From: Haplodiscus bocki
Taxonomy: Eukaryota
DNA: 64,000 nucleotides
Assembly: GCA_965655095.1 (NCBI GenBank)
Contig: OZ296648.1
Span: 148,676,001-148,740,000, forward strand
Direction of reading: 5' to 3'
Shown: positions 22,461 to 62,244 of the stretch, piece after piece
Layout of the letters: each line of letters starts with the position of its first letter
Numbering within the stretch: position 1 is the first letter of the stretch
The notes under the pieces: generated by a model
What the model was told of the DNA's origin: nothing
The model's database searches: none
What the model saw: only the letters and a program-made list of their open reading frames with translations
Position numbers and translations under genes: made by a program

Positions 22461-23027
22461 TTCCTCTAAATTGGGTCGATATTTCCTCCTTCAAAGTGGC
22501 GGCACTTGGAACTGTGGGGAAGCCGAGGGCCCTTCTGCAGTGACCTGCAGACAAAAGGATTATATACCTGCTTGCTCTTGGGAAAGAATGTGGGCCGTTA
22601 AATATGACAGTCCTTCGAAAGAAGAGAAATTTTACGCAGGACATTTCATTTGTATGGTTTATTACTCGGAGAGTGGAACACCAATGAGATAAGAACAAAA
22701 TTCGATCAGACAAACGAAAGTCGCGTCATCTATCGAAATTTTTGTGAAACCAGCGGGCTTCCAAATTGAAGAGGTTTTAATTTTCAGTGACTCATGTCGC
22801 GTTATAGCTAACGCTTAAAGAGATATATTATATTTCTTACATATATGCAAAAATATATTAAACAGGAAATGAATAATGTGTAACAAGAGAAATGCAGACG
22901 GTATTGACTAACCTGGGAGCTGGTGTTGGAGTGGCATAACATGCGGTATAAAAGAAGGCTGAAGGAATGGAATTGCACAAGAAAAGGAAGAAAGCAAAAA
23001 TTCTAAAAGCGTTGGAACGCGGTTCAA

Positions 23028-23123
23028 CGCTATTGGCTCAACGACTGGTCACGAAGTAAAATTCCATTTTGGCTCAACGACGCTATTGGCTCAACGACCT
23101 ATCACGAAGTATAACTCCATTTT
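23028..23123 (+). repeat. 53-bp tandem duplication in the 5' LTR
   Basis: cgctattggctcaacgac...tcacgaagta.aa.tccatttt at 23028 and 23081. Confidence 0.85.
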
Positions 23124-23308
23124 GCAGCTAGGACGGGAAAGGCGGCCATAACTTACTTACTCATTTTCTGGACGGCGACCATACATCTTTCCCTTTACCT
23201 TGCTCCCTTTCCTTTTTACCTTGCTTTCTCTTCCTTCGCCCTTGGTTAAAATAAATCTGAATTCTGTTTCTTCTTTCCTCGGACGGAAATGTTTCAAGAC
23301 AATTCCAA

Positions 23309-23895
23309 TTTGTCTTAGCTACAAATTCTGCTGCTTATAGAACCAAACTACTCACTTTCGATTTTTCACCAAATGATCCTTTTGGCTCTCGCCAAAACTG
23401 AAGGAATACGCGGCCACTCGAGTATAAATACCCAGTGCACGGCCATTTTTATTCATTCGCTTGCTACCACCAACTACCCTATTTCCCCGAGGCGAAACTC
23501 TCTTCCACTTTCCTCTCATCCGAATTCTGGGGTTCAATCCTAACCCCAAAGTTGTTCTGAGACAATCCCAAAACATGTCTTAGCCAAAATTCTTCATCTT
23601 TTCAACTGAATTGGTCTTGGCCGCAAATTCTGTTTTACAGAACCAACCTACTCGCTCTCGGTTTCTCATCAAATGATCCTATTGGATCTCGCCCAACACG
23701 TGACAGTTTGAGTATAAACACCCAGTGCACAACCATAATATTCATTCGCTTCCTACCGTCAACTACCCTACTTCCCCGAGGCGAAACTCTCTTCCACATT
23801 CTTCCCGTCAATACTCTGGAAATATTCAAAGACTTTCTATCAACAACCCGAAAATATTCAAAGACTTTTTCGCCTGCAGAATTGTCTTAGCCGCA
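23309..23895 (+). repeat. ~300-bp tandem duplication inside the LTR (also at ~38945-39530)
   Basis: Shared blocks gtctt.gc..caaattctg, cccagtgcac and actaccta.ttccccgaggcgaaactctcttccac occur twice; a third partial unit starts near 23880. Confidence 0.85.
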
Positions 23896-23929
23896 AGTCA
23901 CTAATATCCCGGAAATTTTCAAAGATTTT

Positions 23930-24022
23930 CCAGCAGCAGCAGCAGCAACAACCAGCCGTAGCAACCAGCAGCAGCAACCAGCAAAAGCAACCAGCAGCAG
24001 CAACCAGCAGCAGCAACCACCA
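23930..24022 (+). repeat. 13-bp minisatellite (CCAGCAGCAGCAA) in the 5' LTR
   Basis: Visible tandem units; a longer array is present in the 3' LTR. Confidence 0.9.
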
Positions 24023-25652
24023 TTAATCCTAACAGCAACACCTACGCAATCAACGCCGACCTCCGTTAGTTATCAATACGGTTCCTAGCAGAGGATATCC
24101 CGCTATCAGTTGACCTAGGACTAGCTGCCCGGTAGCAGAGAGTAATCACCCCACCGAGGCCCAATTTTGTTACCTTTCCACTTTTCTGAAATTCCCTTTT
24201 TATGGTTTTTTCCCTTTTTTGCTAAGGCTTAGTTTTAATTATTAATTGGTAAAAGTAAAACTCATAAAATTTACGACCAGTCGACAGTCCTTATGACTTA
24301 TTTCCTGGTCGCAGATTAAAGAGAAAAAGTTTTATTGCTGGTGTCACGTGGGCCCGGACTGTTAATCGGCAGGTGACAAAAACCCAGCTTAATAATATGA
24401 CCCGACGCGTGGAATATCTATACGGTGGTCATTTTTTATACTAAGAGTAGTGTAAAATGCTTGTAATTTAAAATGCATGTAATTTCAACCCCTTTCCCTA
24501 CAGGCTGGCCTATCAAGCTTGGGACTAAAACAGGGGCTAGTTTTTTTAACCCGTCACCCTGAAACTCTAGCGAGAGACGTGGTTTAGCTAAACGTAAAAC
24601 AATCTGTAAAAAGACGGGTTAAAAAAGCCGAATAGATAAGACGGGACTTGCTCGTCACCCGCACTAGTCAAAAAGTAAAATGGTGTATGTTTACCCTATT
24701 TGCTTTATTCTCAGATTTTCAGTTTCAACAGCAGCTGTTGTGGATGTGGATGTGGATTAGCTTTGATTCTGAAGTTTTATAAATTTGGTTTATAAATCTA
24801 AAAATTATTGGGACTAAATTTGGATTGTCCAAGAGCCTAATTTTGAGAATTCCATTTATATTTCAATTGGACTGAATCGAACGAGTCCAATTTCTATACA
24901 TGATTTATTGTTTCTTAACTGAATCAAATTTAATCAATTCAACTTTCATATTTGAATTTATAATTGTAATTCAGACAAAATTAAAGTAGTCTGAATTAGT
25001 TGATGTTATTAAATTTTATAACTTTAATTCAGACTGAATTAAAGCAGTCTGAAGTAGTTATTGTTATCAACATTTTCACTCCTAAATTGGAATTAACTTA
25101 ACGTTGATTAATTTTCAGCAATTTGTGGCATCCCCTATTTAACCCCTCGTTTAATCTTCTGACTTCTTGCTGAATAAGTTGCTGTCCACGGTTGATTTAA
25201 AATGAAGTTGATTAATTGAAGGTTAAAATTTCATATAAAATTGCTAAAGCTAATATTGAAATCGAAATAAAACAAGAGAAGAGTTGACTGAAGTGTATAA
25301 CGTTAAAGACCATATGGCAATTTTCCCTGTGTTAATCCACGCTTACAACCTCAGACAGAGCTGAGTAATTCCCCTTGCGTACGTGCAGTCAATTTCGTTT
25401 TCCGCAAGTCAACATATTGGAATACCTTCACTGAAAATTTAACTTTCCTTCGTATTATTCTCCGCTAAAGCTCACAAGTCCTTGCTTGAATTCACACAAT
25501 CCCTTTGTTCGCTCGATTAAGCAAGGCACACTACTGAGACTTATAAAGAATAGCCGTCGCTACATTGCAGCAGTGCTGACTGAGTCAGCCGCCAGCACAA
25601 CTAAGTAAATATTAGATTTGCAATACCTCTACCCCCACAACGTGCGACAAAC

Positions 25653-25669
25653 TGGTGCAACCAGTGAGG
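25653..25669 (+). promoter_or_regulatory. Primer binding site
   Basis: TGGTGCAACCAGTGAGG 3 nt after the LTR end. The tRNA identity is uncertain; it resembles tRNA-Ser-type PBSs after CpG decay. Confidence 0.75.
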
Positions 25670-25676
25670 CCATTAA

Positions 25677-25895
25677 ATGAGCTATAACTGTGAAGTGTCA
25701 GATAATCTTTTCTCCATTTTCCCAACCTGGTCTGTTTTAATTTTCAGCTTAATCTTTATATTGGGCGCTTTGATTTCATTCATTACAGGCGCTTCATTTG
25801 GCATAATAGTTAACTGGGTCTTAGATTTTAGCCAGAGCATTCTCCACTCCAATCGACAGAGAATCCGCACACAAGAAATATTTCGCCTAGTTTGA
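25677..25895 (+). CDS. Small hydrophobic (putative membrane) protein directly after the PBS
   Basis: ATG-initiated 72-aa ORF with the hydrophobic stretch WSVLIFSLIFILGALISFITGASFGIIVNWVL. Confidence 0.5.
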   Translation: MSYNCEVSDNLFSIFPTWSVLIFSLIFILGALISFITGASFGIIVNWVLDFSQSILHSNRQRIRTQEIFRLV

Positions 25896-25922
25896 ACGAG
25901 CAATTTGACGACTTATTGGTTG

Positions 25923-26256
25923 ATGCCTCTGGAACTTGGGAACGACCCTAATCAGCACTGGTACTTCTCTGAATACAACGAATAAAAACATTTTTTTCCT
26001 ATTCTGCCCGTGGACGTTAGAAACCCCAACTGAACAATTGAAAGTGATAGTTACGAGGATTGATTTCACTCTCAAAAGACAGTTCCGACTCCGATTACAA
26101 GTTTATCCTGAAGGAGAACCCCTATTCAGTAAATTTATTACATTGACGAGATTCCACGAACATTTGGCCTCAGCAATCGCCGCTATTCTACATTATCACG
26201 AATTTCCAGAACTCGGGTTTCCCGAAGTGGATTTGCAGTTCTCAATTCACTCCTAA
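25923..26256 (+). pseudogene. Pre-gag accessory ORF, paralogue 1
   Basis: MPLELG..(stop/frameshift)..FCPWTLETP..LKVIVTRIDFT..FRLRLQVYPEGEP..HEHL..HEFPEL. Confidence 0.6.
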
Positions 26257-26329
26257 CTGACCCAGTGGTGAATCAATATTCCTAGATAACCCTAATTGAA
26301 TCTTCAATATAAATTCACGTTAACACTTG

Positions 26330-26656
26330 ATGCCTAAAAAATTTGAAAGTTCGATGACGCACTTGGACGAGCTACCCGAGGAAGAGTGCAAGCATATTCC
26401 ACTAAATTGCATCTGGCCCATCACCTCCGAACACACGAACCTAACGGTCATCATAACCTGTTTAAAATGGACCTTCAATTTTGAATTTTGCGTACGAGTA
26501 ACAGCCTATCAACTGGGAGCACCGAACATTTATAAATAAACAGATCTAGAAGATCATCATCCTTTGCTTCGACCCTTAACTGACGCACTCCATTTATACG
26601 AAGCTTTCCCCGAACTCATTTGAATTCCCATTGACTCGAAATCTTGGAAAAGCTAA
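26330..26656 (+). pseudogene. Pre-gag accessory ORF, paralogue 2
   Basis: MPKKFE..EEECKHIPLNCIWPIT..VIITCLKWTFN..VRVTAYQLGAPNI..HHPLL..EAFPEL, with in-frame stops. Confidence 0.65.
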
Positions 26657-26692
26657 TGGAATATCTGTATTTCAAATTCTTTCAGAAATTAA

Positions 26693-27034
26693 ATGCCACA
26701 AAACTTTGAGAACTTTCCACCAAATTGGGATGCTATGGAAGAAGAATGCCAATATGTTCCGCTGACTTGTCCGTGGACCATTACTTGTAAAGACGGAACC
26801 GTGGAATTCATTATTACGAGTTTGCAATGGACTTTCAACTAAGATTTTTGGATAAGAGTTATTGCCCATTCAGAAGGAAACCCGAATATTTCGGAGCAAA
26901 TTAACATTGATAAACATCACCCTTCACTCGAATCTTTATCTGAGGCGCTAAACGATTACGTGAAAGTTCCCGAACCCAACTTAAACTCTCTCCAACTTCA
27001 CATTCTTGGAGAACTATTAGACTTCTTGTTTTGA
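26693..27034 (+). pseudogene. Pre-gag accessory ORF, paralogue 3
   Basis: MPQNFE..EEECQYVPLTCPWTIT..FIITSLQWTFN*..IRVIAHSEGNPNI..HHPSL..KVPEP, with one in-frame stop. Confidence 0.65.
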
Positions 27035-27052
27035 GAAGATACATTCTCCAAA

Positions 27053-28477
27053 ATAGCCAATGCTCACCTAGCTTATCCAAACTTGGCACTGGACAATTTT
27101 TCTGGCACGGGTCCAGACGAAGACGCAGAAGCGTTCATCCGTTTAATAGAGTGCAAGATTAATTTTGCTCTTGGAGCCGAACCTGAAGCCGCTGCAGACG
27201 AACATGCTATCCATTTATTCAGAAAGAAAGCTCTACTTTCTTCATTGCTAAGAGGACCAGCAGCTGAGTGGTATGGGAGCACTATTACGGATGCTATGAC
27301 TTAGAATGATGTTCGAACATTGTTCATAACAAAATTTTTAGATGGAAGAAACAAATTTGGACACAGAATGGAAGTTGAACATTGTATACGAGCTGATGGA
27401 AAAGAGATTTGAAACTTCCTTCACCGAATAAAGAAGACAGTGGACAAGGGCTGGCCTGACGATATGGTTGGAATCGCTCTCGGCGACCAGAATGCTGAAC
27501 GCACCGCACAAGTGCAGCAAAGAAGACAAAGATATTTTGGTTACACACTAAAGGGACTCAGACCACGATATCTACAACGAAAGGCTCAAGAATTTTTAAT
27601 GGAACATCCAAATGCTACTTGGAATGATTTTTCAACCCACTTAACTAATAAAGTCGTATCTTACCAAGTCTCTACTAGCTTTCAAAATGACGAAGAACAG
27701 AACACGGCTCAAATGGCCTCATTGGGACAAGAACTGAAAAACCTACGAACTGAGTTGAAGGAACAGAGAATAAACGCTTTAGGAGGAAACCAGAGAACTG
27801 TTGACCCTAACCAAAAGGGAAGACAGAATTCTACAAGATGTTGTGGGAATTGTCGGACCAATGGACACACTCCTAATAACTGCAGAAAGAAGATACGAGA
27901 TGAAGAAATCCAGAAGTTGCAGAATGAAACCACAGCAGAGAAAAAGGTTACGTTCAGCCAAGATTACAACAAGAAGCGAGGACCCTCCCACGGATCTGGG
28001 AACTGGACTAGACGGAACGATGACAATGGTTCTATGATGTCAACTCCACGATCATTTACTAGAGGAAATTTCCGGCCAAGTAATCGGAATTCTAACAACT
28101 TCAGACAAAGTAGACCTTTCGAACGACGAGACTACCCGACTAACAACAATATTCAGTATAATGACCACAGAGCAAACTCACCATACCGGTCAAACCAGGA
28201 CCAATCCAGGAATTGGGGAAGTAACAATAACTATTCACGATCGCCTTCAACCTCACGACAAGATTCCTCTTTCACGGATTTCCGCAATCAACCCCGATCA
28301 AATTCTTCCAACCCTTCAGTGTTTAACCGGTTTTGAAATGGAGACCTGAGCAACAATATACCCTACGACAAGAAATTTCCAACTTCTAACAACGGTAACC
28401 AACCAAACGTAGTTCGATTCACTACAACAGACGATGAAATTAGTTCGTTATCGGAACTGTGCCCTTTAAACTACTGA
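27053..28477 (+). pseudogene. gag: gag (capsid, zinc knuckle, Asn/Arg-rich tail)
   Basis: One frame: (ATA in place of ATG)ANAHLAYPNLALDNFSG..LRGPAAEWY..GLRP..CGNCRTNGHTPNNC..LCPLNY*; several premature stops. Confidence 0.9.
28465..28471 (+). promoter_or_regulatory. -1 ribosomal frameshift slippery site T TTA AAC
   Basis: X XXY YYZ heptamer in the gag frame just before the gag stop; pol opens in the -1 frame. Confidence 0.8.
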
Positions 28478-31400
28478 GGTCTACAAGCTCAGCTACTGAC
28501 CAGTCCAAGAATTCAAGACTCAGCTTCAACTATTTCTACTTCGCCACCGGAGACACTCAAAAAGATAGTGGCTTAGGAATTGAATTCATGTTACATACTG
28601 GAGCTTCCAGCTCAATCATCAACTACCGAACTTATTGGGAAATCTGCCAAACCCAACATCCAATCACGCTGAAAAGAAGCACTACGCAAACAAGGACTTA
28701 TTTTGGTCAAGTTGTACCTATGATTGGCTTTGCAACACTAACATTCAGTTGCGACCCGGATGGACAATTTTCACTTCCTTTGACCGTCTGGATAACCGAA
28801 ATGAAAACTCAGAACCTTCTCGGCATGGACTTTTGTCAACAGCAAGTATCCGGTATTCACTTCGATTTACCCGGAAGTTAATTTAAAGAGCCACCAAATA
28901 CTGTGTGTTATGGAAGCCTGCATCAGAACAAATCGTATCCTTTCATTTCGCAAATCCTAACAATACGAACTCCGCATGCAATGCACATTGAAGCCAAGAG
29001 CGCAAGATGCTGGAAGTATTCTCCCGAAGATCCCAATGCTCATTTCCCTCCTTAATCAACTTTTCACCAAAATCGCAAAGCTGTTGCTACGGGACTATCA
29101 TTTGTCAATGCGCTATGCACCAAATCAGAATCAAACCTACCTATACTAATGGAAAATAACAAGAACCACCGAATTACCTTGCCTAAAGGCCGAAGTGGCT
29201 TTTCATCATTAGACGTCTCCGACAAAGAAAAACCAAAAAATCAAATACGAGATCCTTACGAGCTGACCAATGCAATTCTTTCAAAAAATGAACAGTACAA
29301 CGATTGTTTCCTACTACATTCTACAATTCTTTCCCAGTTACCCGACGAAATCTTGCAAATAGTCTATGGTAACGAAATTTTGATTTTGAAGACATAACGT
29401 TTTTCTTTCTGAAGAAAGTAAAGTTCCTGGGACACGTTATTTCACCAGATGGGATTCAACTGATAGCAAAACGCGTAGACGCCTTACGGAACCTCAAGTC
29501 GCCCCAGAGTAAGCGAGATGTATGTGTGAAAGTCTTGGGATGTATTGGTTTCTGCAGCTGCTATATTAAGAACTTACCTGTTGATAGTCAGCCGTTTTAT
29601 GACCGCCTAAAAGATTCTACACCAGTCCACTGGACTGAAAAACACAAAACTTTGTTTAACTCTATTAAGGAACCAATTCACAAAGATACAATTCTAGCAG
29701 TTTCTTCTACCGATTACCCGTTTCTTATTCACGTGGACTCTTCAAATGTTGGTACAGGTTGTATTCTTATCCAACAATTCCCTGAGGGAAAGAGAATTAT
29801 CTCGTTCAACTCGCGTGTATTTGACAAAGCAGAACAGAAAATGTCCACTCATCGAGAACTATGTGTAATCGTAACATCTCTCCAGACGTACAAACACTAC
29901 AATATTGGATCACCATTTCCCATTTATCTCTATTGTGATCATAAACCAATTCTTTTTTATGGGGACACAAAGGACAACTATGGCATCGCTTCTTCCGATA
30001 TCAGGTGATCATTACAAAATTCCAAAGTTTGAAGATCATTTGGACTCCGAGATCCAACTTATCATTTCCAGATTTTCTCAGCCGAAACATCACGATCGAA
30101 GAATATCAGATGTACCACTTGCAACATAAACGTTTTCCGAATGATATTGGGCTTTCGATGAGAAGGGAACTCCAGTCTCATATCAAATTCAGCATGAGGA
30201 CAACCCTAACGATACTTTCAACGACTTTTACCCAATCAGGTACAAGCGAGGCAACGAAGAAAAAGTATTACGATTACAAAGTGACGGCGAAGATTTTATC
30301 GTCAGTAGCCTACTTGACGAATTCCCAATGAATTCAATTCAACAAGCTTCTGACTGCTTCCGAATGGGACGATTTATCAACCAGTTTAGAAGAATGTGTG
30401 GCCCAGAGGCTCAATCAAAGCTATCCGTTAACACATCCGATACTGACTATAGTTCAATTGACTCCTTTAGTTCGTCTGCAGATGACACAGCAGATCCAAC
30501 CAGTTACTGGGATGCCTCATGCCACATCCGTACGGACTCCGAAGATGGAAGATGACAAAATCGTTTGTGATATTAGTATTCAAGCTGATAAACCCCGACT
30601 CTTTCAAGCCAAACAAGCTCACGAATTCGTGCTCGGGAAAACCGATGCTTCTCTAGCCAAGAAACTCCTAACAATCTCTGAGGCTCCACATCTAGACACC
30701 AAAGCATTGATTCGGAAACTTGACGAAGTTGCGAAGACAGTAGATCTCGATGTATCAACCATTCTCACAGAACAAATGAAGGACCCAATTCTTGGTACTG
30801 TACGTTCTTGGATTCGTAAGAACACTCCTTCCGATACTAAAGGTCCGGAGATACAACAGTCAAAAGGTCTGCTACGATAATGCCAAGAATTCAACAGACT
30901 TCTTATCAAAGAAGAAGGACAGCTCCTTTGCTATATTGAACAGTCAGACAAACTAGAAGAGGAGAATCTCCGTATTTGTCTCCCTTTATCCCTATTCCTT
31001 GCATGCTTTCGACTGGGACGCTACAACGAAAAAGGTGGGCACATGGGAGCAACTAAAACTTATGCCAATGCCAAGAGATTTTACTATTGGCCTGGAATGT
31101 TTGATTGGATATGTGCTTTGACAGCAGATTGATTTACCTGCCAGAACAACAAACCTAAACCGAAGCATGGAAACGAAATTCCACTCGAAGAATGGCAAAA
31201 CGAAACAGTTCCTTTCCGCACCATACACATCGATCACAAGGGACCCATTCACCCGACTAGTGCTAGTAATGTGCATTGTCTTTAAATCGTTGATGCATTC
31301 TCTCGATTTTTGATGGTCTATCCAGTCCGTAATATAACAGCCCTAGCAACTATTTTAGTTGTTGAAAAGAGGACTCTTTCTTTTGGAATCCCACAATCAA

Positions 31401-32640
31401 TCATCCATGATCGAGGTACTGCTTTCATCAATACAGTTCATCAATTGGACCAAAGACTTGGAATTACAATAAGACCTCGTACAGCTTATTCACCCTGGAA
31501 AAACGGTAAAATTGAAACCCAGAACCAACATATTCCTCGATACTGGCGAAGCTTTCCTAATGATGCCGGAAATAACTGGTCTTCACTAGCACCGAAATTT
31601 GCATTCGCCCACAACACAAGTGTCAACTAGACAACTGGAAAAACCCCATATGAAGTTGTATTTTGGACCACACCTCAAATATCTATGTCCTTCAAACTGG
31701 GACTTTATCGGAATAAACACAAACTTTGCTGTTTAAAATTCTGTGAAAACCTTCCTTCTCATTCTCATCGTGAGAACAGTTTGAAGAACGAGTTGTTGGA
31801 CAACCTATTTCAACCGCAGTTGTCACAAACTCTCTTAGGGTGAGAACGAACCTTCAAGCAAATCTATTCATCAACCTTCGAACGAAGCCGAGAACAGACA
31901 GCACGATCACACGCCTATCGCAATCGCTTCAAGTTGGGACACCACCTTGAGATAGTACAGAAAGTACTCTACGAAAATCACAAGCAAGATCTCACACGGA
32001 GCCAAAAACTTCAACAACGAAGACTTGGACCCTTTACCGTTACCAAGCGTATCATGGATACCACCTATCAAATTCAAGACGATAAAGACCCCACATTTAT
32101 CAAAACTGTCCATAGAAACTACCTTGTTGAATACTATCCTAAAGAAGGATCTCTACCCGCAATGATAGAAGAATATGTACCTTCTGATCATCAGAATGAC
32201 AATTGCCACGGGCGTTTCATGGAGCAACGCAACCGGGATTTGAATAACCCAAACACAACAGAAGAGCTTGATTCCTTCCCAATCCCAATAGAACCGTTAC
32301 GATCTATTTCGTCCACAAACAAGCCGAAACGTTCTAGTATGCATAGTAACGATTCTGGACTTACTTCTCCACTTGCTTCCTCTTGCACCCCTGTGCTATC
32401 ACCTGCAATTCCTACGGAAACATCAATTCCCATCAATCTTCTTCTCAACAATCACAAACTGATCAATTGTTGCCCGGGAACATCTCAGTCCAATTCAACA
32501 ATTTATTCGCATTAGTGCAATCCGCATGGCCAGAAATGGCGTCAAATCGCGCTCTAAAGAGCCCAAATACAAATTCTCTCAGACAAAATACCCGGATTCT
32601 CAGTCAGTGTTGAGGACAATCACTCAACAGGGCTATAAAC
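28465..32640 (+). pseudogene. pol: pol: protease, spacer, RT (core deleted), RNase H, integrase
   Basis: FMLHTGASS (mutated D-T-G), KVKFLGHVISPDG, HVDSSNVGTGCIL..RELC..YCDHKPI, GHMG..WPGM..CQ, IDHKGP, HDRGT, NGKIE, LGPF. Many stops and frameshifts. Confidence 0.92.
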
Positions 32641-32978
32641 TTTGATCCCCTTTTTACTATCGCCACATTTTTGTAACTTTTATATTACCTGCACAACTAT
32701 TTTCTACTCGAGAATTTTGCTTTTATTTGATTTCTGATTACTTTGAGCACGATGGCTGCGATTCTCCAATGCGGACGATTCATTTTCCTCTCTACTCGCT
32801 AATTCAACTCCTGGTTTATATCTCCTACAATTTTACAAATAATTACGAAAAAGCCAAAAATACTTTTATTTGTTGTGCAATTCCAAAGAAGAAAACCGCA
32901 CAGTACGCTACTGCACAAGACATATAAAAATGCCGCCGAGGGCTACAAGGCCCCCGACGACAGGCGGAGTCGAGCGAC

Positions 32979-33479
32979 TTACTCTATTTCGGGAAAGCCG
33001 CCCGACTCCGCCAACATACGTAATTTTTCTGTCCTCTCTCCAACGGCCCAAGTTTCATAATGGCTACGGAGGCGATATTTATTAAAGCCCGTCAGCTTGG
33101 CATATCCAACAATATACGCCAGCATCCGCTCGAACAGCGGCTCAGCTGCAAGCTGGAGGAACTTCGCCTGCCACTGAGGCCCGTGACGCTCTTGTAGATA
33201 CGCTGAAAAATTCTGGGAGATTATGGGAGCCTCCACGACATATCCCAACTCATTAACTCTATTTCTCGTCTCCTGGCCCCAATTTTTTAATTCTATTACG
33301 TCAGTGCGAGTGTAATAATTCCTGAAGTTATTCCCATCGTCGGGAAGTTCCCATCCATGCGACAGTTCCAGCTCCGGGATCGGAGGAGGAGGAACGGGCG
33401 AAGGAGCCTCTGGCTGAGGAGGAGGCGATTCAGGTGACTCTAAGTTCATATTTACCTGGATATTCAGAGGCGCTGCCAC
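32979..33479 (-). CDS. Antisense accessory ORF with proline-rich N-terminus, unknown function
   Basis: Uninterrupted 166-codon frame (first ATG at 33449) in a GC-richer block between pol and env; the composition looks protein-like. Confidence 0.55.
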   Translation of the reverse strand: MAAPLNIQVNMNLESPESPPPQPEAPSPVPPPPIPELELSHGWELPDDGNNFRNYYTRTDVIELKNWGQETRNRVNELGYVVEAPIISQNFSAYLQERHGPQWQAKFLQLAAEPLFERMLAYIVGYAKLTGFNKYRLRSHYETWAVGERTEKLRMLAESGGFPEIE

Positions 33480-34054
33480 CTCTTGTTCTTTATTCGATTT
33501 TTCCTCGAAATAGGAATCTGAATTGCTTTCCTTCCTGCAAACAATTCATATTACTCATTGGAAGTTACGACCCGCCTGCTCCTAATGTGACGCGTCTATC
33601 CTATTCAGAACAAAGCTGCTTCACTTTGCCGACAGCCCGATGATAAGAAATCAGCGTGCTCCCGACAAGAGATAGCACGACACTAGTCCAGAACCAAAAA
33701 CAGTGCTCAAGGATTATCCCACATTTGTTGTTCTGAATTTTGTCCTACAATTACCAACGCCTATTTTACCCCTCTAACCCCCGGAAGGCCCTGCAGTGAC
33801 GAGCACAGCAGAACGAAGAAAAGGAAGAGGATGCCACCAAAACTATTATACACATTTTATTCATTTTATTTGATTTGAATTTTTTTTTGATTAATCTTAC
33901 GAAAAACTTAATTCCTTAAATTCCTCAATTATATAGTACATAGTTACTATAAAGAGTGAATATATCGTAGCAATGAAATAACTGAAAAATACATTCTCAG
34001 ATTTGCTATGACCGATGTATGTCAAAACTGACGGAGAATTGAAGTCAATAAAAT

Positions 34055-34939
34055 GAAATGAGCTGGAATCCGACGCAACAACGATCCTCATTCACACCAT
34101 AACAGACGAACACCTGGAAGAGGAATACAAGTGTTTTTCTGACTCCCCTAACTATTACCATCTGCGCTGTTTATTGTCTGCAGACATCTACATAATCAGT
34201 GACGTTATTTGTGGCAACAAGGAGCATATTATTTAAATGACACTCGTACTCCTCCGGATTGACAATCAACTTCAGTGTATTGTGGGCTTAACATTCATCA
34301 CAGGAACCAAAGATTTCATGGTAACAACTCAATCTACTACCAGTGGTCAGATAACAAACTTCATTTGCTCACCCGAATCAACTCATTATCCTTTTATTGA
34401 AGCTATACTCAAGAACCCTCCCCCGAACCACATTAAAAGTGAGAACGGGAAATTTTAAACGACTGTTCGCAACAAGCATTTTTATTCCAGAAGACCTGGA
34501 GTAAGGAAACTCAGGACTCACTGTTTGAATGCATCAATTAGAAATATCAATCTCGCAGTCACACACAAACACACCACTCAACAGAGTTAATCTCAATTGT
34601 AAGTGGACTTCAAATAAGTTGAGAGAGTGTAAAATCACTAACTTTTTTTGGTTACCCGACGGGAGCCCTTTACAAGTGCGAATAGACCCGGTTGAGAATC
34701 TACCCACTGTAGTTGTTATCCCAATACCTGCCCGCATAGCAGAAGTCGCCAACGTCTTTGTGACCCTCACAATTGCTGGTCGGAACTTGGCCACTCCGAC
34801 TTTGGACACGACGGAAAATCAAGGATTGGTAGATTTCCTGGCGTATATGAAAGCTAACTTTAGGACATACACTGGGGTGTCACTCATCAACCTATTGCAC
34901 GAATTTTGCAATCTTTACGACCTGGAATTCAAAGGATAG
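34055..34939 (+). pseudogene. Unknown accessory ORF(s) upstream of env
   Basis: A frame reading NELESDATTIL..HII*MTLVLL..NGKF* is followed by the 136-aa ORF 34529-34939; this looks like one decayed ~300-codon gene. Confidence 0.45.
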
Positions 34940-35345
34940 ACGAGGAAGGTAAGTGAGTTCTTCAAAACCCCCACGAAGTCTTGACGAAATAACTAATCTG
35001 CTTCACCACTAAACAAAACCCGAATAGTTGGACATAAGTACCAATTGGGAACTGCAAACTATGAAAACCCAAATAGTTGGACGTTCGAGCGAACTGGGGA
35101 CTACAATCATCTTATCTATGGTGGAAGTAAGATAAATTTAATTTTTGGCACTACCGGTTTTAGCCCGGCACCCTTTACAAAAATCTCCACGTGGTTACTA
35201 GAGCAGTGTGGCGACTCTATAAATTTAGTGCTATCGCTTCGTGTTTGTGCCTACGAAGTAGCCGGTAAAATATAATACGGCTGTTCCTTCTCTTTTGGTA
35301 GTTGTGATGAGAAATTCCACTCTACCCTTCCCATTTGCGAAAGCA

Positions 35346-37513
35346 ATGGATGTTAGAAACCAGGTCTTGTTTCTAATTACTTTAGCCAGTTTCACAAACG
35401 GCAAGCTTGAAACAGCTGATCTTCAAAAAATAGCCTCCCAACTCAAAGTGACACATTATGACTGTGGAGAAATGACAGAGAATAAACTCTACACTTTAAA
35501 CCAAGTTTCCAAATGCAACATTGCTCCTGAAAACCTAGAAGTCAGCAGAGCGAAAATCACGATGTACACAAATCTTCTTCGAAAAGAAATCAACGCAACA
35601 GTTTGTACAGTCAAATATCAGAGTGAACAATGGCACTGCGGTTTTGGAGACGACTCAAGCATGGACGCCCATCATACAGGAGGCATAACAATAGACTTAA
35701 CCGTCACAGCATCCCAATGCAGAACCTTGGCGAGAGGAGGTTCAATCACTTCAAAGGATGAGACACTCGAGTTCAAGGAAGGAGTAAAAACAACGGTAGT
35801 TAAACACAAGGATTTTGTTGACAATGGAGCGGACCTCAGCGACAAATACAGAATCGAAGGCGACTCATATGGATGGATAAACCGCAAATAATCTGAAGGT
35901 CATATACAGGACGTCGTGCTTAAAGTACGTACTAAAGAGGGCAAAGTTATGAGCAAAGACGGATTACAATTACCATGCCCTTTGGAAGAACTTGGATGCG
36001 ACACAACTTCATTTGACCCTTACGCATACACATGGGACAATCCTGACAATTCCGTTTTAGCTATTCATCGGAAAGAAGATGTCAACATGATCAAACAAGG
36101 AAAAAGCAAATACTATATTGTCAGTGGACGAAACAACACCAGTCAGTATCTATTCGAGGTAAAAACGAAACCCGAAGTTTTCTGTAACAAACCAGTGCAG
36201 TTATACCCGACTAACTACGATTCCTTATATGTGGTTAACGACTTTGGTGGCTTCGATCTCGCTTCTGGAAAAAGAATGGGATTCTCAGGAGGAACACAGC
36301 ACCTACAATACTACCAGCCTTCAGCTTCGTCTGACAGCAAACTATTCGTACACAAACCTGACTTACCCCATACAGATAATCTTAACCCAGAAACGCCTCA
36401 TTATCTCAACCTAGACTATGAACTCCATCAAGGAACCAAACTGAATTACCTATTTTTCGAAAAGTCAAAGATGCTGAAGGCTCCGAGATCCAACTTTTAC
36501 GGAACCTATGCGAACAAGAAAGAACCCAAATATTAACTAATCTGATGCTTTTAATGGAGAACCCACGTTTAGCTGGTTATATGCTAACTGGGAACCGCTC
36601 CATTTTCCTCAGTACCGATGGCAGCCTCGCTTGGTTATACCACTGCCCTTTGATGAGTTCTCCACCACACGTGATGAACCAATGTTATGATAAAATTCCT
36701 ACCTTCTACAAAAATGAAATATTCTTCGTCGACCCAATCACCCGACAAACACACCCAGATGCTCAAGTTCAAAATTCTTCTGACAGGATAAAGAACCTCT
36801 TTCAATTCGACATATAAGATGAGAACTCCTGGTTCACTATTACACCCTCTCTAGAACACGGGAAATGACCAGCAGTATTTGGACCAAAAGATGTAACTCC
36901 TGTACCCAGAAGAGCTTTTGGCAGAGCAGGAGACGCTGGAATCTACACACGAGCCCAGTTATCTGAATTTTGGGACAATATCTTTATCAGCGCTGCTTCA
37001 AGGAAAGCTTTGCAAAAAAATTGAAAAGAACTCATCCTCCCCGACACAGCAATTCATGGACCAGAACAACATTCTTACTCTGCCACACGAACCGATTTCT
37101 ATGTGGACAACATGATTTCCCCCAGCTACTTCAAGAATCAGTTTATGGACACATTTGGATCAGTTGCCTATGTCTTAGAATTTTGTGGGATATATTTCTC
37201 TTGCTTCCTGTTTATCAAGCTCATCGTTGATCTCATAGTCATGATCTTACGACACATGGAGATTAATCGTCTTAATGGCGCTTCACTTGGATTTGGCAAG
37301 ACACTCCTAAGCGCTTCTTACAATTTGCTTTTGACGTCTATTTTAACGTCAGTATTCAATCCCCAAGCTCCTCTTTTGCAGGCATTGGAGCCCGAACCAA
37401 GGCCTACAAGAGTAGAAGACGAGACTACAGATCCAGTAGACGAAAATAAGAAAAAGGAAGAGCACCTTTATCCGATTGTTCAATGCTCCACTACAGCTCT
37501 TTCCCTTGTTTAA
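35346..37513 (+). pseudogene. env: env: class III fusion glycoprotein (chuvirus G / herpesvirus gB-like)
   Basis: Signal peptide MDVRNQVLFLITLASFTNG; HYDCG..LYTL..C, VC..WHCG, QC; NPRLAGY..DGSLAWLYHCP..QCYDKIP..FFVDPITR; C-terminal TM VAYVLEFCGIYFSCFLFIKLIVDLIVMIL. About 720 codons with stops and frameshifts. Confidence 0.85.
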
Positions 37514-37555
37514 TTAGGATAATATGGGCGTTATCCTGACAAATTTTCTATTAAT

Positions 37556-38220
37556 TTGAAAATTTCAATTTTTTTATATATTGCTTTTTATAAGTCAGAC
37601 GACCAACCACTCCCTTTGCTGGAACACGACGAACTCGATGCGCTGCTCAGCGGAATTGACTGGGACCAACCCTTATCTCCACTTGATTTAAATTTGCCAA
37701 CGGACCCAGATACTATAACCCTTGTTTGTTCTTCCTCTCCTATCTTTCTAGTTGTTTTGCCGAACCAGCCACCAAATCCGTTGCTCGACAAATTCCTTCA
37801 ATCCCTAACAAATACACCAATTCAATTTTCAGATCACCCTACCACCTCTCGGCAAGAGTCTCGAGTCAAAATTCTATTGCCTTCATTGTGTAGTTCCGAA
37901 GCTCATTCTATTAAAACCCAATCGGAGGAATCACATTCTAATCCCTCTTCGCCATGACGACTCCGCTCTAATTCAACAGCTCTGGGAACAGCGACTCAGG
38001 ACGCTAGAGCATATCTTTCACGACATAATCGATTCCAATTAAATCAGAAAATTTTCAGACAGAAGCAAAGGGAAAGGCTTAAAAATCTGTCAGAAGACGT
38101 CGATACAACACCTGTCTACATTATCAGCTAACTAACGCTTTTTCTTCTTGGGAAATTGTGTTTTGGGATTATAAAAGACAAGAATATACCATCCAGAAGA
38201 CGGTTTTATCCTCACAGAGA
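37556..38220 (+). pseudogene. Low-complexity Pro/Ser/Leu-rich ORF remnant, possibly the N-terminus of the TRAF ORF
   Basis: ORF 37556-37957 continues in frame past a TGA; there is no recognisable motif. Confidence 0.35.
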
Positions 38221-38224
38221 TTAG

Positions 38225-38906
38225 TGGTACCCCTGTCAGCTATCGAAGTACAGCCCACCAAGCTCTGCTGCTTTTCAAGACTCCAATGGCCTAGGCAATA
38301 TCCAAATATCGAAGCCTCGGGTCACAATCACTTCAGAAAGAACTTCGAGCACTACGTCTCGTTCTCAGCTAACTGAATCGCCACAGGCTCCCCCATCAAG
38401 CCAAACAGCATCTGGACCTTCTTCGGATTTAGAAACCCGAGGCAAACAACTGGAAGAAGAAATTACCAAGGCGAGAGATAGTCGCGAAACAATTGCATCC
38501 ATTTATCGATCTCAATTTGCCTTCCTCTATAATAAAATTAGAGCCTTGGAGTCTGGAGGCACAGACATTACTTTGTGGAACCTAACTTCATTGAAATTAG
38601 TTTTCGACACCGCCAAATCTTCTGCTCGACTGGACAATGCTGCCAAGGACCCCAGTACTCATTACAATAGCCCTGCGTACCGCACACACTTTTACAGCTA
38701 TAACTTCTTTGTTCAGTTCTACCCATATGATCTGTACTCTGCCGCTGGAAACCACGCTTCAATTATGTTCGCCTTATTCCCCGGCGACTACGATGTTTTA
38801 TTGACATGGCCGTTCCCCAAAACGATTCATCTCTCAGTCCGCGATCAGCTTGACCTCCAGAATACGTGAAATTTTGCCTTCGCACCTTCGGAGAAGATAT
38901 CCTTTC
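38225..38906 (+). pseudogene. Coiled coil + TRAF-C/MATH domain, 3'-truncated
   Basis: Open frame 38225-38869: ..DLETRGKQLEEEITKARDSRE..KIRALESGGTDITLWNLT..SPAYRTHFYSYNFFVQFYP..GNHASIMFALFPGDYDVLLTWPFPKTIHLSVRDQ, then *NFAFAPSEKISF. This fits the TRAF consensus IWKI..SPxFYT..YGYK..LY..GTHLS.F..GxYD.LL.WPF..L.LLDQ..SF.RP. Confidence 0.9.
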
Positions 38907-41390
38907 TTCTATCCTCGGACGGAAATATTTCAAGACAATTCCAAGTTGTCTTAGCTACAATTTCTGCTGCTTATAGAACCAACCTACTCGCTCTCGCTTT
39001 TTCACCAGTTGATCCTTTTGGCTCTCGCCATAACTGAAAGAATACGCGGCCACTCGACTATAAATACCCAGTGCACGGCCATTTTTATTCATTCGCTTGC
39101 TACCACCAACTACCCTATTTCCCCGAGGCGAAACTCTCTTCCACTTTCTTCTCATCCGAATTCTGGGGTTCAATCCTAACCCCAAAGTTGTTCTAAGACA
39201 ATCCCAAAACATGTCTTAGCCAAAATTCTTCATCTTTTCAAATGAATTGGTCTTGGCCGCAAAATCTCCTTTACAGAATCAACCTACTCGCTCTCGGTTT
39301 CTCATCAAATGATCCTATTGGATCTCGCCCAACACGTGACAGTTTGAGTATAAACACCCAGTGCACAACCATAATATTCATTCGCTTCCTACCGTCAACT
39401 ACCCTAATTCCCCGAGGCGAAACTCTCTTCCACCTTCTTCCCATTAATACTCTGGAAATATTCAAAGACTTTCTATTGACAAACAGAAAATATTCAAAGA
39501 CTTTTTCGCCTGCAGAATTGTCTTAGCCGCAAATCATTAATATCCCGGAATTTTTCGAAGATTTTCCAGCAGCAGCAGCAACCAGCCGTCGCAACCAGCA
39601 GCAGCAACCAGAAAAAGCAACCACCAGCAGCAACCATCAGCAGCAACCAGCAAAAGCAACCAGCAGCAGCAACCAGCAGCAGCAACCAGCAGCAGCAACC
39701 AGCAAAACCAACCAGCAGCAGCAACCAGCAAAAGTAACCAGCAGCAGCAACCAGCATTCATCCTACCAGCAGCACCTACGCAATCAACGCCGACATCCGT
39801 TAGTTATCAATACGGTTCCTAGCAGAGGATATCCCGCTAGCAGTTGATCTAGGGCTAGCTGCCCGGTAGCAGAGAGTAATCACCGCACCGAGGCCCAATT
39901 TTGTTAACTTTCCACTTTTCTAAAAGTCCCTTTTTATGATTTTTTCCCTTTTTCGCTAAGGCTTAGTTTTAATTATTAATTGGTAAAAGTAAAACTCATA
40001 ATACTCACGACCAGTTGACAGTCTTTATGACTTATTTCCTGGTCGCAGATAAAAGAGAAAAAAAATTTATTGCTGGTGTCCCGTGGACCCGGACTTTTAA
40101 TCGGCAGGTGACAAAAACCCAGCTTAATAATGTGACCCGACGCGTGGAATATCCATACGGTGGTCATTTCTTGTACTAAGAGTAGTGTGAAATGCATGTA
40201 ATGTAAAATGCATATAATTTCAGTCCCCTTTCCCTACAGGCTGGCCTATCCAGCTTGGGACTAAAACAGGGGCTAGTCTTTTTTAACCCGTTACCCTGAA
40301 AATCTAGCGAGAGACGTGGTTTAGCTAAACGTAAAACAAACTGTCAAAAGACGGGCTAAAAAAGGCCGACTAGATAAGACGGGACTTGCTCATTACCCGC
40401 ACTAGTCAAAAAGGAAGATAGTGTTTGTTTACCCTATTTGCTTTATTCTCAGATTTCCAGTTTCGACAGCAGCTGTTGTTAATGTGGATGTGTGGATTAG
40501 CTTTGATTCTGATGTTTTATAATTTTGGTTTATAAATCTAAAAATTATTGGGACTAAATTTGGATAGTCCAAGAGCCTAATTGAGATAATTCCATTTATA
40601 ATTCAATTGGACTGAATTGAACGAGTCCAGTTTCTATACATGATTTATAGTTTCTTAATTGAATCAAATTTAATCAATTCAACTTTTATATTTGAATTTA
40701 TAACTTTAATTCAGACATAATTAAAGTAGTCTCAATTAGTTGATGTTGGTTATATTTTACGACTTTAATTCAGACTGAATTAAAGCAGCCTGAATTAGTT
40801 AATGTTATTAACATTTCCACTCCTAAATTGGAATTAACTTAACGTTGATTAATTTTCAGCAATTTGTGGCATCCCCTATTTAACCCCTCATTTAATCTTC
40901 TGACTTCTTGCTAAACAATTTGCTGTCCACGGTTGATTTAAATTGAAGTTGATTAATTGAAGGTTAAAATTTCATGTAAAATTTCTAAAGCTAATATTGA
41001 AATCGAAATAAAACAAGAGAAGAGTTGACTGAAGTGTATAACGTTAAAGACCATATGGCAATTTCCCCTGTGCTATTCCACGCTTACAACCTCAGACAGA
41101 GCTGAGTAATTCCCCCTTGCGTACGTGCAGTCAATTTTTTTTCCGCAAGTCAACATATTGGAAAATCTTCACTGGTAATTTAACTTTCCTTTGTATTATT
41201 CTCCGCTATAGCTCACAAGTCCTTGCTTGATTTCACGCAATCCCTTTGTTCGCACGATTAAGCAAGGCACACTATTGAGACTTACAAAGAATAGCCGTCG
41301 CTACAACGCAGCAGTGCTGAGTGAGTCAACCGCCAGCACAACTAAGTAAATAATAGATTTGCAATACCTCTACCCCCACAACGTGCGACA
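38903..41390 (+). repeat. 3' LTR, lacking its first ~470 bp
   Basis: Aligns to 23267-25649 and ends GTGCGACA followed by the TSD CTCA. Confidence 0.93.
39567..39757 (+). repeat. Expanded 13-bp CCAGCAGCAGCAA minisatellite in the 3' LTR
   Basis: About twice the length of the array in the 5' LTR. Confidence 0.9.
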
Positions 41391-42416
41391 CTCATCAATG
41401 GAAATTTTCAAAAAAATCAGTGTTTCAGCATTGTTTCATTGCTACTTTATGAATTATAACGATTTTTCAGCGGTAATCATCTCCGGGTCCTTTGACGTTT
41501 TAGACTAGGCGAGAAAAGGAGTTGAGAAAATTTTAACTAGAGCAAACGATTGTTTATCAAAAGAAATTGAAATTTATTTCTATTTGTCAACATCCCTCGA
41601 CGCCCAATTTTGTGTTCAAGTTAATTGAATAACATGAAGTAAGCCAACATAAAAAATTAACAATTTCAATGACGTTTATTTGGAATTGAAAATCTATCAA
41701 AACATATAAAAACCCTTGAAGCATCGAATTCGGCTACATTTTGTGGTGATGGGAGAGATAGTTTGATATAATTCAAGTATATTTTGAAGGGTACGACGGT
41801 GTCAGAAAAGAACTCTTCCAAGTGCACCATCAATCTTGTTTTTCGTTTAGCCCGAGAAGTGAAGTCCCATCAGATGAAGCCTAATTTTACGTTTTGAAAA
41901 AATTCTTTTGTGAACTTTTCTGTTTCACCGACTGACTATAAATCTGCTTTTAGTCGCTGCTTTTCAATTAAAAAATGCGTGACTACTATACTGATTTGTC
42001 TTTTTTTCAACTACAGCTTGTTGAAACTGTTCGGATACCAAACTTTACAAACATCCATTGGTTTCAAAACCAGGAGTGGAAAACAAACACATTGCGGTCG
42101 ATTTTTTTTTGGATTTTTGGACCTACGGTCAAAAATTTTTCTCGAAACCCCCATTAGATCCATCAAAAAGTTTCCATCGAAAAGCATGTATGAAAATATT
42201 TGAAATAATGACTTTATCAGGCAGTATATATTGTACCAAATGCGAGGAAAAACACTTTTTGACTACCTAAATACAGTTATAAATTTCTTTTCAAATGGTT
42301 TTTTTACATGGTAGCTCAAGAAAATTAGGATTATTAGCAATGCAAACAAATAACACATAAAAACCGCAGAATTGTTCAATTGTCATACATACTTCAAAAA
42401 TCGTTCGATTGTTCTG

Positions 42417-42866
42417 CTATTTCCATCTTTCTCCAAGAGCAATTTCTATCTTTTTAATGGTCTTTGTCACGACAATCTTTTGGGCCAGAGTTTTGTCTAG
42501 TCTGGCCGGGAAGATGCCTGCTTCAGGATGAGGATCACTCTGGGAGTCGTCCTCATTCGTTCCCTGGTTTTCCACGTTTGTGTTCCGGAAAGTTCCCGGA
42601 ACGGTTTCGGAATGCGTCTGTATCTGTTGGTTCAAGAGAAATTCACCTATATTAGACAGAGCACCCAAAATGCGGGACTCTGTCCGCCTGAACTCCTGGG
42701 ACAGTTTTCTACTGACTCTGCCTTCAATCTTCTCAGAAACTTGTGTGATATATTCCTCGTTAATTCTAGGAACGAAAGTGTTTCGTGACTGGCCGTTCCT
42801 AGGACTTTCTTCTTGTGTTTCTCTTGTAACGGCTGCCAACTTTCGTTTATTTCTCAACGTTGCCAT
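42417..42866 (-). CDS. 149-aa ORF, probably a retroelement Gag/ORF1 N-terminus
   Basis: ATG start, basic N-terminus and a coiled-coil-like EEYITQVSEKIEGRVSRKLSQEF..RILGAL segment. Confidence 0.5.
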   Translation of the reverse strand: MATLRNKRKLAAVTRETQEESPRNGQSRNTFVPRINEEYITQVSEKIEGRVSRKLSQEFRRTESRILGALSNIGEFLLNQQIQTHSETVPGTFRNTNVENQGTNEDDSQSDPHPEAGIFPARLDKTLAQKIVVTKTIKKIEIALGERWK

Positions 42867-43400
42867 CTTTTTGAAGGGAAACTGCTACGCAGTTATGAAG
42901 ACTGAATAATTTTGTATTTGTTAATAAACTTGAGATTATAACAAAAATGTTATTCTTTAAAATAAACAACTACTTGCAATCAGTACAGTCAACTGATAAT
43001 CAAAGTGATATTATGGATCTCCCGCTTAGTACTTTCAGTTCTCCTATTTATACCTTTTCCTTGGCGGGAAACATAATTGTTTACACGCCAAGTAAAGGTA
43101 CAAAGTAGGGAAAAGTACTTTAATCATAATAATTACAATGGAATATGCCGACTCTGGCGGGAAATAAACAACTTTCCCTCCATTTCTTCCTTTACAGACC
43201 GCGTCTTTTTCATCTTTCGACGGAAAATATACGGGTTTGATCAGTCGGAAATGGATATCAAAGTGATTATTCCCGCGCCGACACAATAAATAATAACATA
43301 AACAAATGATCAAAAAGATTTTCCATAAGAGAAAAGTATTATAAAATGCACCAAAATTAGGTAAAATACACTAAAATAATCATATAAAATCATAATTACA
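42465..43400 (-). mobile_element. Probable solo LTR containing an intact ORF start
   Basis: On the minus strand it ends ...GTCGTGACA at 42465, with a candidate TGTAAT start at 43400. ORF 42417-42866 (MATLRNKRKLAAV..) runs off the CA end. No clean TSD. Confidence 0.45.
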
Positions 43401-57368: not shown

Positions 57369-58244
57369 ACCAGCTTCGTGCTGTGTATTCCGCGTTATGC
57401 GAGTTCTGCCAAGACCCACTAAGATGGCCTTTAAATTTTCAGGATCTCACGTGAGTACTAGCTAAAACTTCAAGTTTTCTTGAAATTTTTCGTACATTTT
57501 TGCTTTTGTAGCCCCTTTTCTTTTAATGTCCGTTCAGTTTTGTGCACATACGTCACCCCATGCCCGATTTTTTTCTGTGAGTCCTCCTTCACCCCCACCA
57601 GCGTACCGACCCGTGCAAAACCGTTTCCCAATCATCAGTACAACCTGCCTTTTCAACATTTTTCTCGCACTGACTGTCATTACGCTACTCCTACTGATAA
57701 CCGCCATAACCGGGTTAGCTTTCGAAGTTCACGAAACCAGAAAACAGTGTTTTCGCGCAGTAAACGCTAAATTTTCAACAAAAGACACTTTTTGAGTAAA
57801 ATTTGTAATTCCGATGTATCTTTTTGGTTTTCCTGTGTCAACCACTACGAACACGTTACCTAAAGAAATTTTATTCCCTGTTATTTCTGTCAAGTCCGCA
57901 CACATCAAATCCCAATCGCTTTTCGGCCCGAGTGTCCTAATTTACACGGCATCAATTGAGTATTCATTATCGACTTGAAGGAATTCATTACCACCAACAC
58001 AGTGAGACGCACCGACTGGTTCAATTTTTCCCTAACACGAACCATCCAAACCACATTAAGTCCACAAGTAGTTTCTTCTTCCCAGGAATAGCTCAAATCT
58101 GGAGAACTTATATTGAATTCTTGTCGCACTATTTTACTGACCCCCTTGCAATCGAGTATCAAGGTAGTGCTCCCTCAACTTGATGACCTCACCCGCTAAT
58201 AATTCGAAGTAATTTGATTCTTTTTGAGTTTTTTTTAAATTACA

Positions 58245-61827: not shown

Positions 61828-62244
61828 ATCCAATATTCGGAGATTCAAGGCGATGTACTGCAATCAACTGACTCCATTGCTCACTGTATTTCAGCTGACT
61901 TCAAGCTAGGAGCAGGAATCGCTCGAAGCATTAACTGACGCTTTCCAACGCAGAACCCCGACAAGGAAGCCATTACTAGCGAAGTCATTTAGCCGCAATG
62001 GATAACCGAATCGCAACGTTTCGTCTACCATTTAATAACAAAAGTGCGTTATTTCCATAAACCAACGTACAAGGCATTGAGATTATCTCTAGAGGCAATG
62101 AAAAACCACGCTGAAAGCAAAAATGTTTTGCGCATTAGCATGCCCCAGACAGGTTGTGGCCTCGACAAACTTGATTGGAGTAAAGTTCGAACCTTGATTA
62201 AAGAAGTTTTCCGGCCTACCAACATAGAAATCATCGTGTTTCTA
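61828..62244 (+). pseudogene. TARG1/OARD1-type macrodomain embedded in Pol
   Basis: IQYSEIQGDVLQSTDSIAHCISADFKLGAGIA..RFVYHLITK..HKPTYKALRLSLEAMKNH..ISMPQTGCGLDKLDWSKV..IKEVF..IEIIVF in a single frame with two stops (61936, 61990). Confidence 0.93.

Follow-up and report, generated by a model that had tools for sequence, protein, structure and literature searches.

TRAF cargoes in retroelements and viruses

The closest described systems are the giant gypsy elements of planarians, Burro/GYPSM1, which are present in thousands of copies and combine a MATH_TRAF_C domain with an env resembling the fusion glycoproteins of mononegaviruses; the available text of the review that describes them proposes that this cargo meddles with apoptosis and ubiquitination (PMC6431247). 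According to the same text, Burro elements exceed 30 kb, carry MATH in a 4873-aa polyprotein or an upstream ORF, along with BIR, BCL2 and ankyrin domains, and have env between gag and pol (PMC6431247). The element analysed here shares with Burro the Gypsy-type LTR, the MATH_TRAF_C cargo and the mononegavirus-like env, so that this type of cargo is not new, and a preliminary description of the locus was mistaken in holding that no LTR family with such cargo had been described (PMC6431247). Set against the available description of Burro, it is distinguished by its length of about 21.7 kb, a separate env located after pol, a stand-alone TRAF ORF before the 3′ LTR, a PAM2-type start and a traceable donor. 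The Burro hallmarks (giant polyprotein, BIR, BCL2, ankyrin) were absent in a profile search of copies, in which gag, pol and env occupy separate frames.

Capture of a TRAF is also known from viruses, as exemplified by ORF111L of the Megalocytivirus ISKNV. As far as the available text describes it, ORF111L differs in belonging to a DNA virus, in retaining its RING, in being fish TRAF2-like and in acting pro-apoptotically through TRADD (PMC3352826). For acoels, to which the host probably belongs (see below), the available text of one study reports the lack of TLR, MyD88, IRAKs and NF-κB, and its main text mentions neither TRAF nor TNF (PMC12849515). LTR elements account for half of an acoel genome in a report whose available text does not mention TRAF (PMC9911081), and acoels, TRAF and Burro all go unmentioned in PMC13524379. 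A literature search, with most subscription papers and repeat databases outside its scope, returned no description of the acoel element or of a PAM2-TRAF fusion.

A broken element in the window

The window, that is, the whole stretch of 64,000 nucleotides that was analysed, contains an element on the forward strand at 22795–41390, with TGT…ACA LTR ends and a 4-base target duplication, CTCA. The 5′ LTR (TGT…ACA; 22795–25649) is preceded by CTCA at 22791–22794 and followed by a fragmented gag (27035–28336), the equivalent frame of which matches Retrotrans_gag in a natural copy. Profile matches and comparison with natural copies identify protease, RNase H and integrase in the fragmented pol (28444–32515), where about 1.4 kb is gone at 29380/29390, comprising most of the RT and part of a Macro-like domain. 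The fragmented env (35262–37513) encodes a Monjiviricetes-type fusion glycoprotein (Monjiviricetes_fusion PF24664, E 1.2e-9 and 3e-6; the env of a natural copy matches this family with E 6.8e-32). It is followed by orfX (37523–38256), of no known family, broken here but 227 aa long in natural copies, by a TRAF remnant recognised from TRAF-frame homology (38254–38904; linker, second coiled coil and first half of MATH), and by the 3′ LTR (38903–41390), which has lost its first ~0.47 kb and is followed by CTCA at 41391–41394. All of these features are on the forward strand. The K2P distance between the two LTRs is 0.061 over 2382 aligned bases.

The open frame at 38225–38869 (forward strand, 214 aa) matches Pfam TRAF-mep_MATH (PF21355, E 8.6e-11; score 42.7 bits, cut-off 27.4), with the match spanning only profile positions 3–68 of 125. 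A TRAF-C signature after a coiled coil, downstream of env and inside the LTR pair, is what had been reported, and the profile matches, the LTRs and their CTCA flanks bear this out; the extent of the element is corrected here (5′ LTR 22795–25649, 3′ LTR end 41390), and although the TRAF segment is real, what the window holds is a remnant with half a MATH domain. Relative to a natural copy, about 0.48 kb is gone at 38254/38256, including the start codon, the PAM2-type motif and the first coiled coil, and about 0.69 kb at 38904, taking away the end of MATH and roughly 0.47 kb from the start of the 3′ LTR; the frame also has a premature stop at 38867–38869. The window copy is incapable of making a TRAF protein. 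In agreement with the preliminary description, RING and zinc-finger families gave no match in the window frame or in the full-length natural copy (Pfam profile search).

Several further ORFs without known family are kept across copies: besides orfX at 37523–38256 they include ORF Y (34529–34939, forward strand, with counterparts in lineages A–C), an antisense ORF (32979–33545, reverse strand, with counterparts in lineages A–D) and L040:6288–7425. The interval from the 5′ LTR to gag likewise contains short ORFs. Elsewhere in the window, an ORF on the reverse strand at 42417–42884, beginning MATLRNKRKLAAV, suggests another retroelement piece, and a GC-richer, skewed stretch at 58000–64000 suggests others.

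A TRAF gene kept in four element lineages

The element is gypsy-type and env-bearing, a placement that rests on its TG…CA LTR ends with target duplication and on the pol order protease-RT-RNase H-integrase. The TRAF segment is not confined to the window: in a genome search, all 150 scored TRAF matches of lineage A (out of 3543 first-look candidates) were 81–100% identical, many of them open frames of 433–441 aa encoding a TRAF protein of about 430 aa with coiled coils and MATH. More distant protein queries recovered three further lineages, B, C and D (lineage C, 98 scored of 5251 candidates, 89–97% identical; lineage D, 137 scored of 4210 candidates). Since the candidate lists of the lineages overlap, hundreds of copies are demonstrated and thousands are likely. 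Even a canonical TRAF, used as genome query, led to element-type copies in 30 of 30 examined loci (127 scored).

Full copies of lineages A, B, C and D, including one lineage A copy of about 21.7 kb, have the order gag-pol-env-orfX-TRAF-LTR, and some examined copies carry internal deletions (C9:14.43 Mb, C10:28.58 Mb). In the 30 top env-selected loci the TRAF N-part always lies 760–767 nt downstream, and coiled coil plus MATH were found in all of 20 loci sampled down the env list of 150; the TRAF ORF is thus present in 50 of 50 env-chosen copies (30 top and 20 spread down the list). Twelve of the 20 lack a stop or frame break, while eight are damaged, five by a stop and three by a frame break. 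The TRAF frame ends some 57 nt before the 3′ LTR. orfX lies upstream in all 73 element-type TRAF rows (63 places) and an LTR directly downstream in 70 of them (61 places); both are absent beside nine host-type rows (7 places). The TRAF frame is a long-kept accessory gene of an env-bearing gypsy-type clade. LTR pairs that are 99.7–99.9% identical in lineages A, C and D show recent activity.

Hits 18 kb apart had raised the idea of a TRAF inside the LTR, which was ruled out because the units are tandem and share an LTR and because the TRAF frame stops short of the 3′ LTR. Such tandem arrays with common LTRs and units of 17–19 kb are seen at C3:37.41–37.45 Mb, C7:15.32–15.37 Mb and C9:15.02–15.04 Mb, and a 1.8 kb tandem array of lineage D TRAF segments at C4:103.37–103.40 Mb. 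In mosaic copies (L054, L058, L064, L067, L069–L071, L081) the N-part is ~95% and the MATH part ~85% identical to the query, which suggests recombination within the TRAF ORF. The env of lineage A is only 58–59% identical to those of B, C and D, which are 83–97% identical to each other, with RT at 90–99% throughout; exchange of env between lineages is possible. Between protease and RT, pol has a weak, sub-threshold Macro-domain match (E 0.0036; L114:5615–9997, L041:3–130), and a Macro-like domain could possibly be a second counter-defence cargo. Related retroelements were sought elsewhere by matches to gag, pol or env, with none found at any of 81 loci from viruses and metagenomes, the metagenome matches being limited to the 80 best of 462, and orfX had no match in Pfam or Atlas.

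Selection and divergence

Across coiled coil and MATH in the 20 env-selected copies, mean pairwise dN/dS is 0.16 at a mean dS of 0.41, values that are pairwise counts on natural copies from non-independent pairs and that take in decay since insertion (the closest pairs give 0.46). Among the top 30 env loci, dN/dS is 0.02 for env, about 0.28 (0.27–0.28) for orfX, 0.07 for the first coiled coil and 0.29 for the linker. Between lineages synonymous sites are mostly saturated and open frames are still kept. Of the three outcomes that the preliminary description named as counting against it, namely confinement to a single copy, neutral evolution across active copies and nesting as a recent processed pseudogene, none was observed. 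Judged from these sequence comparisons the gene is under purifying selection, yet it changes fast: the TRAF proteins are 37–51% identical between lineages against 90–96% for RT, and lineages B and C share 96% of RT and 93–94% of env residues but 49–51% of TRAF residues.

Two stretches stand out when element and host-type proteins are compared. By analogy with TRAF2 structures we take residues 373–398 to line the ligand groove; their identity is 91% across five host-type rows and 32% across the four element lineages. For the second coiled coil (216–250) the corresponding figures are 57% and 21%. Per-position constancy is partly circular, the rows having been picked by motif, and it is kept out of the evidence.

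Fold and predicted trimer

A natural full-length copy matches PF21355 with E 4.7e-19, and the 28 PDB matches of the TRAF protein are all TRAFs. The predicted structure has helices at 59–147 and 217–260 and a confident MATH domain, with an unstructured N-terminus and linker; the helix at 217–260, directly before MATH, corresponds to the TRAF-N coiled coil and makes heptad contacts in the trimer model. The fold is TRAF1/TRAF5-like (best Foldseek match TRAF1 5e1t, E 5.9e-14), and the top viral fold matches are iridovirus TRAFs. Of the traits of the family, the C-terminal TRAF-C/MATH is present and the N-terminal RING and zinc fingers of TRAF2–6 are absent; TRAF1 is itself RING-less. The TRAF domains of vertebrate TRAF1, TRAF2 and TRAF5 share the fold and the coiled coil/MATH layout, but identity is only ~25% and, in an alignment with canonical rows, the canonical receptor-peptide groove residues (roles and numbering as we presume them) are not kept in the element TRAF.

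Modelled as a homotrimer, the protein obtained a score of 0.79, the best control one of 0.22; contacts agree to at least 91%, pLDDT is at least 84, and likeness to solved TRAF trimers may explain the score. The mark set for it was attained by 21 of the 30 solved pairs (7 of 16 for animals) and by none of 23 single chains. The element protein is predicted to form a TRAF-like trimer.

Probable origin from a host family of RING-less TRAFs

Two host genes of genome G000, at C5:50415063–50416706 and C5:9059877–9061322, encode two coiled coils and MATH, with an intron inside MATH. The cluster 50% identical to the C5:50.4 Mb gene includes RefSeq proteins of the acoel Convolutriloba macropyga, and on the strength of this one named homologue the host is probably an acoel. 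The longest annotated isoform in C. macropyga, XP_075250303.1, has no RING or zf-TRAF match and one residual zinc-finger-like stretch. It is from this annotated member that the family is taken to be RING-less, the C5 genes being known from big exons that begin at acceptor-like sites; a crude pattern scan of ~18–20 kb upstream of each C5 gene found no RING or zinc-finger exons. A small host family of RING-less-type TRAFs is found at C5:50.4 Mb, C5:9.06 Mb, C3:129.36 Mb (inverted pair), C10:61.98 Mb, C1:77.08 Mb and C6:7.80 Mb (inverted pair), and at the seven places examined none has env, orfX or an LTR beside it.

The acoel family resembles the element TRAF in its two coiled coils plus MATH, in the absence of a RING from the annotated model, and in a common N-terminal coiled-coil motif and MATH insert. 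The host genes differ in the intron within MATH, the residual zinc-finger-like stretch, the nearly invariant residues 373–398, the absence of a PAM2 pattern, and the lack of an adjoining env, orfX or LTR. In two trees, whose root is assumed, whose host-type rows include some of uncertain or virus-like origin, and in the first of which long branches meet, all element rows fall on a single branch (SH-aLRT 99, 100), which is placed with the RING-less rows of host type and apart from canonical TRAFs (support 99 and 96). The first tree left out the window remnant, P0158, P0292, L028 and L116, plus L138, L181 and L184 (frame pattern without match); for the second, eight long or redundant rows were dropped and L181 was added. 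An AU test did not reject the host-type rows as a single clade (p 0.335), and the element being nested or sister is compatible with it. Evidence independent of the tree comes from the N-terminal coiled coil, which is 51% identical to that of the host family over 45 aa (E 6e-9). The host intron follows F-I-x-H, and the element crosses the same position unbroken into last-exon sequence. Together with the coiled-coil match, this makes capture through spliced RNA the simplest reading, and we infer with some firmness a single capture from a host TRAF family that was already RING-less, with the nearest host paralogues now 27–35% identical. The preliminary description was right, then, to see an intronless, captured host TRAF, but its idea that the element had dispensed with the RING as a dominant-negative device does not fit the annotated Convolutriloba member, which already lacks one. 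A canonical zinc-finger TRAF at C8:58.44–58.45 Mb was rejected as donor, since in the first tree it groups, on a long branch, with canonical rows.

The same subfamily is met on L212, a 15.3 kb section of a metagenome contig 39 kb long that is gene-dense and apparently intronless, with HSP70, a protein kinase, an IAP (BIR plus RING), three MATH proteins and an exo/endonuclease/phosphatase-family ORF; by its look this would be a large DNA virus. One of the three MATH proteins, P0205, shares 44% identity with the RING-less TRAF of acoels and clusters with that protein. P0122, P0139, P0143, P0162 and others are unrelated proteins in which 5–13 MATH domains stand in tandem, in some cases together with RING or zinc fingers.

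A PAM2-type start overlapping a stop codon

PAM2 motifs are defined by L3, P/V5, A7, F10 and P12, and their ligands are the MLLE domains of PABPC and UBR5, according to the available text of PMC2854688. In lineages A, B and C the N-terminus of the TRAF ORF is a 12-residue PAM2-type motif with L3, P5, A7, F10 and P12, the same positions as in Paip2, eRF3 and Ataxin-2, and it lies in an unstructured region of the model (PMC2854688). Unlike in those proteins, it stands at the extreme N-terminus of a TRAF, in a retroelement, and the preferred Glu at position 9 is absent. Counted by pattern, the motif occurs at all 30 env-selected loci of lineage A, at 8 of 9 loci of B and at 12 of 14 of C, and at none of 13 lineage D loci on target and none of nine host loci. 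By chance the pattern is matched anywhere in 0.9% of 20000 protein shuffles, and the six frames of the window contain one chance match. The Pfam PAM2 profile (PF07145) matches two of five N-termini, at 16.5 and 19.0 bits, both below the 20-bit cut-off, and none of three lineage B termini. dN/dS is 0.04 for residues 1–14 versus 0.33 for residues 15–60 in 56 TRAF-selected copies, a comparison that involves 14 codons and non-independent pairs.

The start codon of the TRAF ORF overlaps the stop of orfX, as ATGA in lineage A and as TAATG or TGATG in B and C, and the overlap with a long upstream frame is found at all 30 lineage A loci, at 7 of 8 in B and at 11 of 12 in C. Caliciviruses, influenza B and SART1 are described, in the available text, as having the same arrangement where termination-reinitiation takes place (PMC10275272). 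The overlap supports the methionine before the PAM2-type motif as the true start, and it argues strongly that TRAF is translated by stop-restart after orfX. The preliminary description could not have noticed either feature because both are deleted in the window.

The motif may be an MLLE binder, with PABP or UBR5 as predicted ligand. The genome contains a host MLLE+HECT exon/gene, with which a homologue search found nothing. A host poly(A)-binding protein was not located at the two loci examined of 53 matches; by their look we take these two to encode an SF3B4-type and an hnRNP-type protein.

Possible roles of the TRAF protein

The TRAF is a real and functional cargo of the element, to judge from its retention and mode of evolution. 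Our best reading, tentatively preferred, is that it acts as a trimeric adaptor between MLLE proteins and the partners held by its MATH domains. The N-terminal PAM2-type motifs of the trimer would bind MLLE domains, either of poly(A)-binding protein or of the HECT ligase UBR5, the MATH heads would bind a host or element partner through their fast-changing groove, and the adaptor would tether that partner to the mRNP or to ubiquitin machinery. The outcome would be protection of element RNA or, independently of NF-κB, a blunting of stress, death or antiviral responses of the host. Lineage D, which lacks the motif and has LTRs that are 99.7% identical, weighs most against PAM2 being central and shows the motif to be dispensable. 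An improbable extension of the adaptor reading is a degradation adaptor, in which the RING-less trimer would recruit UBR5 via PAM2 and the MATH groove would pick host defence proteins; acoel RING-less TRAFs would then be the hub of an NF-κB-free pathway, copied independently by a retroelement and by a large DNA virus (L212).

Alternatively, the PAM2-type motif might only localise a protein that is a decoy, damping JNK, cell-death or acoel-specific defence through mixed trimers or competition with host RING-less TRAFs, again independently of NF-κB. This is a doubtful reading that can appeal to the retention of both coiled coils and the trimer surface, to a genome with one TNFR_c6 match and a zinc-finger TRAF gene, to the presence of the same TRAF subfamily beside an IAP on the virus-like L212, and, as far as the available texts go, to the apoptosis-themed cargo of Burro (PMC6431247) and the action of the iridovirus TRAF on TRADD/caspase-8 (PMC3352826). 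A decoy for the ligand or trimer of the parent should conserve residues 373–398 and the second coiled coil, the very stretches in which element lineages diverge and host-type rows do not, and the fast change at 373–398, outside the trimer-model interface, makes it less likely that the protein simply sequesters the ligand of its parent. Divergence counts likewise against a purely internal role as scaffold for the element RNP, env trafficking or particle assembly, which we consider unlikely: it would account for the presumed translational coupling to orfX, the fixed place after env and the retention in every lineage examined, but TRAF has diverged far more than env and RT between lineages B and C, as is more readily expected of a protein facing the host than of one whose partners are conserved proteins of the element. 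A RING-deleted dominant negative of TNFR, TLR or RLR signalling to NF-κB, as first proposed, is very unlikely. The RING-less architecture and the single TNFR_c6 match would suit it, but the parent family is RING-less already and the canonical groove residues, by our presumed numbering, are not kept. Moreover, if the host is the acoel it appears to be, it reportedly belongs to a group without TLR, MyD88, IRAK and NF-κB, at least in the available text (PMC12849515); a search of the genome for NF-κB/Rel domains gave no match but carries no weight, since the controls gave none either. Least credible of all is a neutral passenger or recent processed pseudogene. The broken window copy and the stops and frame breaks in eight of 20 env-selected copies are what it would predict, but the low dN/dS, the survival of open frames in lineages that are saturated at synonymous sites and the mere 27–35% identity to the nearest host paralogues largely refute it, as does the tree, in which element rows form one branch that is not nested close to a single host gene.

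Significance for acoel defence

Among LTR elements of invertebrates there are few documented cases of accessory genes taken from a host and kept under lasting selection. The MATH cargo of Burro is described by domain annotation only in the available review text (PMC6431247), whereas here the donor family, intron loss, selection and a four-lineage history can be traced. What is new in this element is the PAM2-type start, present in three of four lineages, and the start codon that overlaps the stop of the upstream ORF; the motif offers a cheap and direct test of the adaptor reading. As acoels reportedly lack Toll/NF-κB and complement signalling, mimicry by a parasite points to a defence pathway that acoels do use, and the traced donor, the PAM2-type start, a host that reportedly does without NF-κB and a virus-like contig bearing the same TRAF subfamily would together provide a good handle on acoel defence.
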